Sequence record: PQ571289
DNA from: Escherichia phage EF1-1
Length of the DNA: 64,000 bases
Direction: 5' to 3' (one strand)
The notes beneath the pieces were generated by a model. That model made no database searches, had not been told where the DNA came from, and was given only the letters and a program-made list of their open reading frames with translations. Of the stretch, positions 35,208 to 38,746 are shown in pieces (position 1 is the stretch's first letter; the number at the start of each line of letters is the position of its first letter). The position numbers were made by a program, and so were the translations under genes.

Positions 35208-35468
35208 TTACTCCGCAATTTGAGCCATGAGATCACGCAGTTCGGTAAAACCGCCTACGTATGTTACCTCCCCGTTCACTTCAGACAGAATTTGTGGAAA
35301 TGTGCGTGGAGGAACTCCGGTAAGATCAACAACTGTTTTAGTCATTGATTCTAAATCATAGTCTTGATCAAGACTTAAATATTCAAACTGTTTATTGCGC
35401 ATGGTTAATAGTTGTTTTGACATTTCGCAAAATTGACAGTTAGGTTTACCAAAAATTACAAATTCCAT
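35208..35468 (-). CDS. glutaredoxin/NrdH-like redoxin
   Basis: CQFC active-site motif near N-terminus; 86 aa; AAGGAGAGG RBS. Confidence 0.7.
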   Translation of the reverse strand: MEFVIFGKPNCQFCEMSKQLLTMRNKQFEYLSLDQDYDLESMTKTVVDLTGVPPRTFPQILSEVNGEVTYVGGFTELRDLMAQIAE

Positions 35469-36310
35469 TACCTCTCCTTATTAAGTAATACTGCTAAAGA
35501 CTGTTCAATACCTTTATTTAAATCTGATTTTGTAAGATAGTGACTGGTTACTAATTGTGACTTCACCGGACGTGCTGCTGGAGCATTATAGGTTGAAGCT
35601 GATACCGCCGATATCTTAACAGGTTCTGGCATCTGTGTCAAGATCTTTTCCGCAAACTCCGCCCAAGAAATAAAATGGCTTCCTGCAAAATGGTAAGTCT
35701 TAACAGACCTTGACCAACCTGTTTTTAATACTTCAAAAATAGCTTCTGCTAAATCTGGAGCATATGTTGGACAAGAGAACTGATCAGCAACAATAATAAA
35801 ATCACGTTGTCCATCGTTATAGCGAGACAACATCGTTTTTAGAAAGTTATTTCCAAATTCACTATATACCGAGGCTGTTCGAATAATATATGCATTTGGG
35901 TTAACTCCTCGCACCATTTTTTCACCAAGTTCTTTCGTATACCCATAATTGTTTATTGGGTTAGGTGTAGTATCTTCAAAAATAGGATGAGAATAATTAA
36001 AAATATAGTCTGTAGAAATATGCACAAAATCAATTTTAAGTTTGCTGCACACTGCCGCAATATTCGCAGGTCCATAAGCATTAACAGCCAAAGCAGTAGC
36101 AAAATCATGTTCTGCTTTATCTACAGCCGTATAAGCGGCGCAATTAATAACACCATCTACATAATCTTCAATAATAGCGTTTCGCACAGCTTCAAAATTT
36201 GTAATATCTACACGTTCTTTAGGATAAATTAAAGATACATTTGAAGGAGCCACTTTACGTAAAGCTTGTCCCAGTTGTCCATTACCACCCAATACCAGAT
36301 ATGTTAGCAT
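35468..36310 (-). CDS. rmlD: dTDP-4-dehydrorhamnose reductase
   Basis: VLGGNGQLG N-terminus, STDYIF motif; last gene of rml operon. Confidence 0.8.
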   Translation of the reverse strand: MLTYLVLGGNGQLGQALRKVAPSNVSLIYPKERVDITNFEAVRNAIIEDYVDGVINCAAYTAVDKAEHDFATALAVNAYGPANIAAVCSKLKIDFVHISTDYIFNYSHPIFEDTTPNPINNYGYTKELGEKMVRGVNPNAYIIRTASVYSEFGNNFLKTMLSRYNDGQRDFIIVADQFSCPTYAPDLAEAIFEVLKTGWSRSVKTYHFAGSHFISWAEFAEKILTQMPEPVKISAVSASTYNAPAARPVKSQLVTSHYLTKSDLNKGIEQSLAVLLNKER

Positions 36311-36870
36311 ACACCCTCACTACGCAACTGTTGAAAAGATTTAGCCATTGCATCTTTTGTTGATAAGATAGGTTTAAAACCTTCGTCAAAAATCATATCG
36401 AAGCCCCAATCGATCCCTATATCAGGATCATCCCAACGTAAACTTTGTTCACTAGAAGGGTCGTATGGAGTTGTGCATTTGTATTCAAAGATAGCATCCA
36501 TACTCAAAACTATAAAACCATGTGCCAAACCAGGTGGAAGCCAAAACTGCGTATGGTGTCGTGCACGAAGAACAACACTGTCCCAAGCACCGTAAGTAGG
36601 ACTATCTTTACGTAAGTCTACAGCGAAATCCAATACTTCACCACTTACACAACGAACAAGCTTACCTTGCGGATTATTTGTTTGAAAGTGCATTCCTCGC
36701 AAAACACCGAAGTTTGATTTAGACATGTTATCTTGAACGAAAGTTTGTCTACCAATGATATCTTCGTATTTTTGTTCATTATATGTTTCTAAAAAGAAAC
36801 CACGGTCATCTTTATAAACGTCTGGTTTGATAATTACCGCACCTTCAATTTTTGTTTTTTCTACTTTCAT
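36304..36870 (-). CDS. rmlC: dTDP-4-dehydrorhamnose 3,5-epimerase
   Basis: [26 protein letters not shown]; ATGA overlap with rmlA stop. Confidence 0.8.
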
Positions 36871-37745
36871 TTTCCCTCCGCTAATTTGAGTAGGTATTGC
36901 CCGTACTCTGTTTTCTTCAGTGAGTTTCCATGATAGACCAAAGTCTCTAAAGAAATCCACCCTTTTTTGAAAGCAATTTCTTCCAGGCACGCAATCTTCA
37001 ATCCTTGACAGTTCTCAATAGTCTGCACGAATTGACCAGCTTCCATCAGACTGGCGTGTGTTCCTGTGTCAAGCCAAGTAAATCCTCGTCCGAGAACTTC
37101 TACTTGTAACCTCCTATCTTCGAGGTAGCTGCGATTGATATCGGTGATCTCCAGTTCTCCACGCGCGGAAGGGGTTACTTCTAATGCACGTTGAATAACA
37201 GAGTTATCATAGAAATACAAACCTGTGACAGCATAATCTGATTTAGGATTTTCAGGTTTCTCTTCAATAGAAATAACTTGACGATTACTCCCAAATTCAA
37301 CCACACCGAATCGTTCAGGATCTTTCACCAAACACCCGAAGATACAAGCTCCGCCCCAAACATCTACCATCTCACTAGCGTTAATCAGTAGTTTACCAAA
37401 GCTTTGTCCGAAGAATAGGTTGTCGCCTAAAATAAGAGCAACAGAGTCTTCTCCGATAAAATCTTTACCGATGATGAAAGCGTCCGCAAGACCTCGTGGC
37501 TCGGATTGGATTGCGTAAGTGAGTTTTATCCCAAACATAGACCCATCTCCAAAAAGATGCTCAAAGTCTTCCTGATCGCCTGGTGTGGTGATGATTAAGA
37601 TATCCTTAATGTCAGCCAACATCAATACCGATAAAGGGTAGTAGATCATGGGTTTGTCATACACAGGGAGCAATTGCTTGCTCACACTGCGTGTTACCGG
37701 ATGAAGGCGGGTTCCACTTCCTCCCGCCAAAATAATACCTTTCAT
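36867..37745 (-). CDS. rmlA: glucose-1-phosphate thymidylyltransferase
   Basis: [35 protein letters not shown], near-colinear with bacterial RmlA; AAGGAGGG RBS. Confidence 0.9.
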
Positions 37746-37753
37746 AACCCTCC

Positions 37754-38746
37754 TTAAATCTTCTCCCTCCACCATTGAGGGTTGTTTAAGTACCATTCAA
37801 TCGTTGAGTAGAGATCTTGTTCAAATGTAGAGTTTGCACTCCAACCCAGTTCAGACTCTATTTTAGAAGGATTGATTTCATAACGCAAGTCATGTCCTTT
37901 ACGATCTTCAACAAAAGTTATCAAGTTGGAAGAAGGGTAGGTTCCTGCTTCTGGATGTACAGCATCTATGTAGTCACAAACCATATAGATGATCTCCATA
38001 TTGGTTTTGGGATTACGTGTTCCAACATTATACGTTTGACCTGGTTCTCCACCTGTTGCCACTTGAAGAATAGCTCGCGCATGATCCTCAACAAAAAGCC
38101 AGTCTCGCACCTGATCGCCTTTACCATACACCGGAATCTCTTTATTCGTCAAGATACTTGTGATGATTTTTGGGATCAGCTTTTCTGGATGTTGATAAGG
38201 TCCAAAGTTATTGGAGCAGTTGGTTATCACAACAGGTAAACCGTAGGTACGGTACCAAGCTTTCACAAGATGGTCAGATGCTGCCTTAGACGCACTGTAT
38301 GGGCTTGAAGGGGCATAAGCTGTCTCTTCGGTAAAGGGAACGCCAGAGTCTGCCATATCGCCGTACACTTCGTCTGTGGAGACGTGTACGAACATCTTCA
38401 GTTTATTTTTTGGGAGGAGCCTTGCAGCTTCCAATAAATTGTATGTACCAATAATATTGGAGTCGATGAAAACTCGTGGATTCTTGATAGAATTATCCAC
38501 ATGACTCTCTGCCGCTAAGTGAATGATGAAATCGGGATTGCACTCTACTACTAAACTTTTGACCTGGGTTTCGTTTGCCAAATCCGTTATGCTTAGTTTA
38601 ACGTGAGTGATATCGCCTACATTCTCAATATCTGCTGCATAGCCCATCTTATCAACGACAAAAACTTCGTTATTGGGATCTTGACAAAGAGAGCGCACCA
38701 CGGCACTCCCAATAAAACCAAGACCACCTGTTACCAGATAGCGCAT
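37754..38746 (-). CDS. rmlB: dTDP-glucose 4,6-dehydratase
   Basis: [17 protein letters not shown] Rossmann N-terminus, SDR-type YxxxK region. Confidence 0.85.

Follow-up and report, generated by a model that had tools for sequence, protein, structure and literature searches.

A dTDP-L-rhamnose operon in Escherichia phage EF1-1 and its possible part, with a portable glycosyltransferase cassette, in virion glycosylation

The rml operon and its enzymes

The subject of this analysis is an operon of four genes, rmlB, rmlA, rmlC and rmlD, in Escherichia phage EF1-1 (sequence record PQ571289), of which a stretch of 64,000 nucleotides was analysed and is referred to throughout as the window. Minus-strand open reading frames (ORFs) for all four genes were found at 35468–38746, where an initial annotation made from the letters alone had placed them, and the N-termini that it quoted for RmlA and RmlB proved correct. 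If the encoded enzymes act as predicted, RmlA would produce deoxythymidine diphosphate (dTDP)-glucose from glucose 1-phosphate and deoxythymidine triphosphate, RmlB would turn this into dTDP-4-keto-6-deoxy-D-glucose, RmlC would give the epimerised 4-keto sugar, and RmlD would convert the latter to dTDP-L-rhamnose. Judging from the sequences, dTDP-L-rhamnose or a very close 6-deoxyhexose is very probably made. On balance, we slightly favour a reading in which the four genes form a working, phage-owned dTDP-L-rhamnose pathway that feeds glycosyltransferases, with virion proteins as the preferred acceptor.

For the enzyme assignments, curated NCBIfam equivalog cut-offs were used, and E-values ranged from 1e-67 to 1e-134, well outside what chance would give. 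RmlB scored 429.5 bits against TIGR01181 (cut-off 365.1), RmlA 446.7 bits against TIGR01207 (cut-off 360.65; scored on residues 7–292), RmlC 224.1 bits against TIGR01221 (cut-off 155.75) and RmlD, with a narrow margin, 238.5 bits against TIGR01214 (cut-off 224.05). The top PDB matches, without exception Rml enzymes, were Salmonella RmlB for RmlB (1g1a, E 8e-111), 4ho0 for RmlA (E 3e-123), whose best PDB matches were all RmlA, Salmonella RmlC for RmlC (1dzr, E 3e-55), and B. anthracis 3sc6 (E 6e-44) and 1vl0 for RmlD. In RmlB the catalytic set is intact, with the NAD motif G7–G13 (GxxGxxG), T124-D125-E126, which aligns with T133/D134/E135 of Salmonella RmlB, and Y150/K154 (YxxxK). The same holds for RmlA (G8-GSGTR13-L loop, GGxGTRL; K23, D108, K163 and D226). 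RmlC keeps its active-site residues H61, K70, Y130 and D173 when aligned with Salmonella RmlC 1dzr, and RmlD keeps G8–G14 (GxxGxxG) and the Thr/Tyr/Lys triad T100, Y122 and K126. It had been considered that the best matches might instead lie in other short-chain dehydrogenase/reductase (SDR), cupin or nucleotidyltransferase families, or that catalytic residues might have been lost; such families scored far lower than the Rml equivalogs, every catalytic residue is kept, and the four proteins are genuine Rml enzymes.

The four genes are tightly packed (Table 1). Stop and start overlap as ATGA between rmlA and rmlC, the rmlC/rmlD overlap is 7 nt (ATGCTAA), and rmlD overlaps the glutaredoxin gene that follows it by 1 nt (TAATG). 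The mechanical ORF for rmlA extends to 37796, and the ATG at 37745, which lies 8 nt past the rmlB stop and has GGAGG ahead of it, was taken as the start; the rmlB-rmlA junction is hence a spacer of 8 nt with a GGAGG Shine-Dalgarno sequence and no overlap. Translational coupling, which had been put forward for all four genes, was borne out at rmlA/rmlC, rmlC/rmlD and rmlD/glutaredoxin and had to be given up at rmlB/rmlA, where the 8-nt gap lies. The glutaredoxin gene shares a transcription unit with rmlD and is translationally coupled to it, although it stands outside the sugar pathway.

The surrounding minus-strand block runs in the order ThyX-like gene, nrdA, HNH endonuclease gene, nrdB, four small ORFs, rmlB, rmlA, rmlC and rmlD, followed by glutaredoxin, a small ORF, lysozyme, phoH and an HslV-like gene, so the placement of the operon between nrdB and the glutaredoxin and lysozyme genes in the initial annotation was accurate. 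The 108-aa (amino acid) ORF directly upstream of rmlB is kept in the same position in phages with the four-gene operon and in those with the two-gene variant described below. A consensus scan from nrdB to glutaredoxin gave no strong promoter-like site, hexamer matches on the coding strand reaching 9 of 12 at most, and the terminator-like hairpins in this stretch were weak and in-gene. The nearest strong promoter-like site was seen at 44364–44337 and the nearest strong terminator-like hairpins at 40709–40696 and 32515–32500, all of them consensus matches only. During infection, the rml genes would be transcribed together with those for the phage ribonucleotide reductase and glutaredoxin.

Table 1. 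Features of the rml locus, with positions in the window
Feature	Position	Strand	Remarks
rmlB, dTDP-D-glucose 4,6-dehydratase	37754-38746	minus	330 aa
rmlA, glucose-1-phosphate thymidylyltransferase	36867-37745	minus	292 aa from MKGIILAGG start
rmlC, dTDP-4-dehydrorhamnose 3,5-epimerase	36304-36870	minus	188 aa from MKVEKT start
rmlD, dTDP-4-dehydrorhamnose reductase	35468-36310	minus	280 aa
Spacer 5' of rmlB with Shine-Dalgarno sequence TAAGGAGAACTG before ATG	38747-38755	minus	one breakpoint of natural rmlB-rmlA deletion
Segment lost in Phapecoctavirus DIJ07P2	37020-37830	minus	811-bp deletion, 9-nt microhomology (local blastn of window)
Glutaredoxin/NrdH-like gene	35208-35468	minus	86 aa; phrog_22, thioredoxin domain
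Function-unknown ORF directly upstream of rmlB	38756-39082	minus	108 aa; phrog_15453
nrdB, upstream neighbour in minus-strand block	39584-40672	minus	
Lysozyme	34545-35045		
phoH	33749-34558		

Distribution, ancestry and natural variants

Nucleotide identity of the operon to over 40 deposited Phapecoctavirus genomes, phAPEC8, ESCO13, DE16 and tuntematon among them, is 97–99%; the window, itself 98–99% identical to over 40 GenBank phages, belongs by sequence to Phapecoctavirus (phAPEC8 type), and its closest relative is DE16. The finding is in this respect already known, the genes having been annotated since phAPEC8 and standing in dozens of GenBank records. Olsen et al. (2020) described the position of the operon in the DNA-metabolism region as "peculiar" and proposed glycosylation of hydroxymethylated nucleotides (PMC7552041), and Maffei et al. 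(2021) mentioned a "putative dTDP glycosylation machinery" of phi92-like phages (PMC8594841). Beyond these two remarks, the literature search turned up no paper on glycosylation or rhamnose use by phi92- or phAPEC8-type phages. It was also noted that near-identical genomes, among them MG065650, OR584014 and OP562383, are on deposit as phages of Campylobacter, Pseudomonas or Acinetobacter; at 98–99% identity to E. coli phapecoctaviruses, such host assignments seem questionable.

The order B-A-C-D and the position of the genes are conserved in Phapecoctavirus, Justusliebigvirus and the deep-branching Klebsiella phage 05F01, from which the cassette can be taken as ancestral to the Stephanstirmvirinae, a widespread subfamily of large myophages that infect E. 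coli and Klebsiella and are employed in phage therapy. Amino acid identities for RmlB, RmlA, RmlC and RmlD are 63, 71, 62 and 55% to Justusliebigvirus PHB05, and 57, 67, 46 and 41% to 05F01, respectively. In phage 4MG, of the sister subfamily Vequintavirinae, the matching block lacks rml genes and runs thyX, nrdA, nrdB, one ORF and glutaredoxin, with endolysin and phoH further on; nor did homologues of RmlC, or of the glycosyltransferases gp071–gp073 described below, turn up at ≥60% identity in any Vequintavirinae among 50,697 phage records. Because the 4MG block runs without rml, the cassette is best seen as an insertion between nrdB and its redoxin, and its location in the nucleotide-metabolism module may be a landing site rather than a clue to function.

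Values of dN/dS for the rml genes, taken against phiWec179 and PHB05, lie between 0.04 and 0.27 and point to purifying selection on the cassette. RmlA is 62–64% identical to its E. coli K-12 counterparts, RmlB 51% (versus RffG), RmlC 46% and RmlD 33% (versus RfbD). Recent capture from the host was considered and rejected, given this low RmlD value and the lack of a close E. coli DNA match: none of 5,426 complete E. coli genomes had a match to the operon above the 60–80% identity band, and the matches reached some 64–70% nucleotide identity at most. A search of 5.8 billion proteins put RmlD in a phage clade, on contigs of ~150 kb, that reaches down to ~50% identity, and the closest cellular relatives were at ≤45%. 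Compared with phiWec179 the operon is a mosaic, in which RmlB and RmlA are 94–96% identical and the adjacent RmlC and RmlD 64–66%, a disparity that indicates recombinational exchange of the rmlBA half.

Only the rmlC-rmlD part is kept in about 24 of 70 matching records, ESCO37, nepoznato, anhysbys, Mt1B1_P17 and ZCKP1 among them. In ESCO37, rmlB and rmlA are precisely gone and the junction reads TAAGGAGAGAAAATG; it fuses the rmlB and rmlC Shine-Dalgarno sequences within GGAG, the rmlC side being GCGGAGGGAAAATG (window ~36871–36880). As the deletion runs from Shine-Dalgarno to Shine-Dalgarno, rmlC retains its ribosome-binding site. A third natural variant is that of DIJ07P2, in which rmlA is largely deleted and rmlB has lost its 3' end, and since the ESCO37-type and DIJ07P2 deletions are independent, there have been at least two losses affecting rmlA and rmlB. 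Among the ~70 matching records none was seen to lack rmlC and rmlD, and the pattern across them indicates that rmlA and rmlB are dispensable and that rmlC and rmlD are always kept.

Not one of the 5,426 complete E. coli genomes was without DNA resembling rmlA and rmlB, the median number of such loci being one; K-12, in which rffG-rffH for enterobacterial common antigen (ECA) occur alongside rfbB-D-A-C for O-antigen, has two. As every one of these genomes carries such DNA, every host would be expected to make dTDP-4-keto-6-deoxyglucose. More than half of E. coli would, by inference, have no rfb-type rml set and hence no RmlC and RmlD. The retention of rmlC and rmlD fits a supply of the intermediate by host RffH and RffG, and the contribution specific to the phage would then be the last two steps. 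In the proposed mechanism, RmlC and RmlD would be the essential phage part, every E. coli making the RmlB product through RffH/RffG for ECA and many strains being without RmlC and RmlD; phage rmlA and rmlB would add flux and host independence only, and could be lost.

Glycosyltransferases and their possible acceptors

No glycosyltransferase was detected in the window by Pfam search (E ≤ 0.01) of 24 ORFs, namely all uncharacterised ones of at least 190 aa and several smaller, and a hidden glycosyltransferase there was rejected on that result. The remark in the initial annotation that none could be recognised thus stands, although no meaning attaches to the absence, which reflects where the window ends. 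When the scan was carried beyond the window, as had been suggested, four adjacent glycosyltransferase genes were located in phAPEC8 and DE16, some 74 kb off; in DE16 this is the distance of the gp071 homologue from the rml operon. The phAPEC8 genes, gp071–gp074 (109618–112765 of that record), lie between primase/helicase and endolysin, are annotated as glycosyltransferases and belong to glycosyltransferase PHROGs. Matches at ≥60% identity in the 50,697 phage records numbered 129 for RmlC, 126 for gp072, 130 for gp073 and 131 for gp071, and counts by organism name were identical for RmlC and the three glycosyltransferases. The glycosyltransferases are retained even in phages without rmlAB, such as Mt1B1_P17. 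By these distributions the cluster is co-inherited with rml, and dTDP-rhamnose probably feeds it: the sugar nucleotide would be the donor for the four soluble glycosyltransferases encoded by the gp071–gp074 homologues of the phage.

Two of the four, gp073 and gp074, are paralogues (41% identical). No transmembrane segment was found in gp071–gp074, and the maximum 19-residue hydropathy across gp068–gp075 was 1.65. The fold of gp072 is an inverting GT-A and that of gp073 a GT-B, and gp072 would be the most plausible rhamnosyltransferase. Structural neighbours of gp073 include peripheral-membrane GT4 enzymes with lipid-linked acceptors (PglA 8dqd, WlaC 6eji, PimA/PimB, WbnH, WaaG and WaaB) and also enzymes with small-molecule or protein acceptors (BshA, GtfA, SdgB and O-GlcNAc transferases). 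Those of gp072 include the wall-teichoic-acid and polysaccharide GT2 enzymes RmlT, TarP, TarS and GlfT2. PBCV-1 A64R, chlorovirus B736L and Mimivirus R655/R699 were also among the structural neighbours, as generic fold matches.

Homologues of gp073 are mostly phage-borne, and a gp072-like GT-A gene followed directly by a gp073-like GT-B gene was found, in that order, in four unrelated phage backgrounds. The pair lies just before terminase in a lambdoid prophage of Pseudomonas silvicola (L009), between holin and terminase genes in two related metagenomic phages (L014 and L015), next to gyrase/topoisomerase genes in a 184-kb phage (L016), and with a gp071-like gene and an RmlB-like SDR gene in a 71-kb temperate phage (L017). 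The last reads Q antiterminator, endolysin, gp071-like gene (44% identity), RmlB-like SDR gene (30%), GT-A, GT-B, HNH, TerS and TerL, and the link between rml and the glycosyltransferases is strengthened by this second, independent pairing with a sugar-nucleotide enzyme. Across these phages, whose capsid types are unrelated, the pair shows 37–45% identity. A 411-aa gp073 homologue (45% identity) was also seen in a non-phage context, at 7205–8440 of a Burkholderia dolosa contig (L010), where it adjoins genes for an intimin/invasin-like outer-membrane protein and a fimbrial protein; some gp073 relatives might act on surface proteins.

What we infer from these data is a set of active enzymes, a product with the stereochemistry of L-rhamnose, use of this dTDP-rhamnose by the glycosyltransferases and, as acceptor, the virion proteins of the phage itself, in parallel with the glycan coats of mycobacteriophage Che8 and giant viruses. 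The choice of virion proteins is a tentative one, made by analogy. The virions of Che8, Corndog and Myrna are glycosylated by phage-encoded soluble glycosyltransferases (Freeman et al. 2023, as summarised in PMC12363180). In tblastn, gp072 gave a weak but significant match to the gp108-type GT2 domain of cluster-F mycobacteriophages (E ~1e-8, over 57% of gp072 length) and was 23% identical to the N-terminal domain of Che8 gp108 (E 2e-3); no similarity to Che8 gp109 or gp110 was detectable. The position of the GT-A/GT-B cassette of temperate phages, in the late block by the packaging genes, was also counted in favour of a virion acceptor. Mimivirus and the chloroviruses have a 6-deoxyhexose pathway and several glycosyltransferases, which they use on their own particles. 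The fullest form of the proposal, that the Stephanstirmvirinae coat their virions with a rhamnose glycan by means of self-made dTDP-L-rhamnose and a portable GT-A/GT-B cassette shared with unrelated temperate and jumbo phages, must be regarded as doubtful.

Several points weigh against this chain of argument. Co-inheritance within one subfamily amounts to about one evolutionary event and is no proof of a functional link. Glycosyltransferase folds do not disclose the donor sugar, and GT4-type enzymes mostly use UDP- or GDP-D-sugars. RmlD clears its cut-off by only 14 bits, which leaves room for the C4 epimer, 6-deoxy-L-talose, as the product. The likeness of gp072 to Che8 gp108 appears to be a generic one of the GT-A core, and in Che8 it is gp110 that is essential rather than gp108 (PMC12363180). 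Ser/Thr-rich C-terminal tails of the phAPEC8 head and tail proteins were looked for as a hint of O-glycosylation, with nothing convincing found; the capsid, decoration, sheath and tube proteins have no obvious tails of this kind. Lastly, the sharing of the pair across unrelated capsids would be explained no less well by a universal acceptor, for example DNA or a lipid-linked sugar.

DNA was the acceptor named first in the initial annotation and is also that of Olsen et al. (PMC7552041): rhamnose would be placed on a modified genome base, like glucose in T4, and so evade restriction or CRISPR. Such a role would suit the gene neighbourhoods, rml adjoining nrdAB, the glycosyltransferases adjoining primase/helicase and DNA polymerase genes, and the pair of the 184-kb phage adjoining gyrase/topoisomerase genes; gp072 also has weak matches to the TET-associated glycosyltransferase family PF20691 (E 1e-3) and to the T-even beta-glucosyl-HMC-alpha-glucosyltransferase phrog (E 8e-6), although these cover ~37 residues round the DxD core and lie far below the generic glycosyltransferase matches. 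The phi92-like phages, a sister genus with the same rml and glycosyltransferase genes, are however reported as "exceptionally susceptible" to restriction-modification "despite a putative dTDP glycosylation machinery", in a test set that did not include phapecoctaviruses (PMC8594841). Enzymes for a hydroxylated base of the T4 type were likewise not found, there being no ThyA-type hydroxymethylase or TET/JBP gene in the 24 Pfam-scanned ORFs of the window or in the phAPEC8 annotation; the lone thymidylate-synthase-like gene is ThyX-type, and such a gene also occurs in 4MG, which is without rml. The literature search gave no report of rhamnosylated phage DNA. With relatives sensitive to restriction and a ThyX-type gene common to phages without rml, we consider DNA glycosylation improbable and the least likely of the three uses first suggested, the other two being virion glycosylation and remodelling of the host surface. 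The last of these is the main rival of a virion acceptor. In it, the soluble glycosyltransferases would work at the inner membrane face on a lipid-linked acceptor (Und-PP-GlcNAc or lipid A-core), from which a rhamnose glycan would be exported, with the effect of masking receptors against superinfection, reducing the loss of progeny on debris or tying up undecaprenyl phosphate. The GT4 enzymes on lipid-linked acceptors near gp073 and the wall-teichoic-acid and polysaccharide GT2 enzymes near gp072 are consistent with this; a universal acceptor would explain why the pair is kept across unrelated virions; and the pair of the lambdoid prophage follows the lysis genes, a frequent site of conversion genes. 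In the examined glycosyltransferase clusters, however, neither a flippase, polymerase or ligase nor any membrane protein is encoded, and the glycosyltransferases themselves are without transmembrane segments. Serotype-converting O-antigen modification of the Gtr type does not match either, its integral-membrane components not having been found: Pfam scans gave none of the GtrA/GtrB/GtrC families, and there is no transmembrane-like segment in gp068–gp075. The phages are moreover regarded as virulent, and a surface glycan already in place could hardly be replaced in one latent period; the late lytic block in which the cassettes of L014 and L017 lie is contrary to expression in lysogens. Remodelling of the envelope is for these reasons held to be unlikely, though it is taken seriously.

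Two further explanations do without either a virion or a lipid acceptor. In a metabolic diversion, RmlC and RmlD would draw dTDP-4-keto-6-deoxyglucose away from ECA or O-antigen, or dTDP-rhamnose would feedback-inhibit host RmlA/RffH, so that host glycan synthesis is shut off or thymidine nucleotides are buffered, and the glycosyltransferase cluster would be unrelated. RmlC shares its substrate with the ECA aminotransferase WecE (rffG, rffH, rffC and wecE are adjacent in the K-12 ECA locus), rmlC and rmlD are the conserved core, and the operon sits in a dNTP-supply module, all of which would suit a drain. The ancestral and majority state, however, includes rmlA and rmlB, which raise the very precursor to be drained and are under strong purifying selection (dN/dS ~0.04), and the strict co-inheritance with four glycosyltransferases would have to be a coincidence; we give the diversion little credence. 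A particular form of it, in which RmlC and RmlD shut off an ECA receptor, was downgraded to a minor rival. Maffei et al. (2021) named ECA as the primary receptor (PMC8594841), and a later BASEL paper traced the need of phi92-like phages (Justusliebigvirus) for wecB to the NGR glycan, not ECA (PMC11990801); rmlA and rmlB also contradict a pure drain. The remaining candidate is a non-structural target, a host or phage protein, a small molecule or an RNA, that would be rhamnosylated for takeover or anti-defence. All four glycosyltransferases are soluble and cytoplasmic, gp073 has small-molecule and protein enzymes among its neighbours, and the rml and glycosyltransferase clusters stand in early/middle blocks outside the structural module. 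A bacterial case of a rhamnosylated non-structural protein is EF-P, the substrate of EarP. Four glycosyltransferases would nevertheless suggest an oligosaccharide rather than a single regulatory sugar, and no candidate target was identified, which makes this the explanation we consider least probable. Virion proteins remain the acceptor that we prefer, and the pathway and its coupling to the glycosyltransferases are the firmer parts of the reading.

Other features, significance and comparison with known systems

Elsewhere in the window, a gene for a 217-aa HNH endonuclease (40717–41370, minus strand; phrog_953, E 3e-57) separates nrdA from nrdB and has the look of an inserted homing endonuclease. 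A GC-rich hairpin (40696–40709) comes after it; the same position is occupied by a 339-bp ORF in ESCO13 and phiWec179, and nothing is annotated there in ESCO37. A second copy of the HNH family, with an AP2 domain, is found at 57489–58094 (minus strand). The thymidylate-synthase-like protein (44381–45379, minus strand) has 332 aa, which is long for ThyX, and matches phrog_85 strongly; its match to Pfam Thy1 is weak (35 bits) and confined to residues 22–175. On the plus strand, 60677–62586 is taken up by 11 tRNA genes in an array, with two for Met, the second being Met(cat), and one each for Arg, Ser, Tyr, Asn, Thr, Gly, Gln, Pro and Ile. Not linked to the rml operon are genes for a Sir2-family protein (22448–23263, minus strand; PF02146, E 1e-22), a DNA-methyltransferase-like protein (24448–25173, minus strand; phrog_757), an HslV-like peptidase (32521–33213, minus strand) and, in a phage regarded as virulent, a serine recombinase/resolvase (14942–15619, plus strand). 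An apparent truncation of an exonuclease at 48441–49559 was traced to an artefact of start-codon listing, the frame being open throughout.

The rml genes are ordinary and catalogued, and the question they raise is why a subfamily of virulent coliphages keeps a sugar supply and four glycosyltransferases under purifying selection. To what was on record the analysis adds rmlCD as the conserved core, a host-supply logic, a portable glycosyltransferase cassette inherited together with rml and an argument against DNA glycosylation. If virion proteins were the target, the view of how therapy-relevant phages meet antibody, mucus and serum would change, and virion glycosylation would extend beyond the actinobacteriophages. 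To our knowledge, virion glycosylation would then be recorded for the first time in phages of Gram-negative bacteria, and no earlier phage would be known to supply its own sugar nucleotide for it. With the envelope as the target, a lytic phage would be editing receptors in a new way. The natural two-gene and four-gene variants, together with rffG/rfbB mutants of E. coli, offer a ready genetic test system.

Compared with the bacterial RmlABCD systems (rfbBDAC and rffG/rffH of E. coli and Salmonella), the phage set belongs to the same four families and agrees in catalytic residues and predicted chemistry. It differs in its gene order (B-A-C-D rather than the B-D-A-C of K-12), in its virulent carrier and in its setting, an nrdAB-glutaredoxin unit instead of an O-antigen cluster, with no glycosyltransferase, flippase or polymerase beside it. 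The phage enzymes are 33–64% identical to those of the host, and RmlD is without a close cellular donor. It does not differ materially from the operons of phAPEC8, phi92 and other Stephanstirmvirinae, the locus being the same and syntenic with that of Justusliebigvirus; the window carries the four-gene variant, and about one-third of deposited relatives the two-gene rmlC-rmlD variant.

T-even DNA glucosylation, by alpha-gt and beta-gt on hydroxymethylcytosine, resembles the present case in that phage glycosyltransferase genes lie amid DNA-metabolism genes. Its donor is UDP-glucose, in contrast to a dTDP-6-deoxyhexose here, and the phages considered here are further set apart by having no hydroxymethylase that could be found and by the restriction sensitivity of their relatives. 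Che8 (gp108–110), Corndog and Myrna likewise have a cluster of soluble glycosyltransferases outside the structural module, with a GT-A core shared with gp072; unlike the phages examined here, they have no sugar-nucleotide pathway, and in Che8 the virion glycans have been demonstrated, whereas those of the phAPEC8-type phages are putative. Among the giant viruses, Mimivirus has a UDP-L-rhamnose pathway and fibril glycosyltransferases, and chlorovirus PBCV-1 has enzymes for its capsid glycan. There, as in the phages, the virus itself encodes enzymes that make an activated 6-deoxyhexose as well as several cytoplasmic glycosyltransferases; the giant viruses use two-enzyme UDP or GDP routes, whereas the phage operon encodes the bacterial four-enzyme dTDP route.

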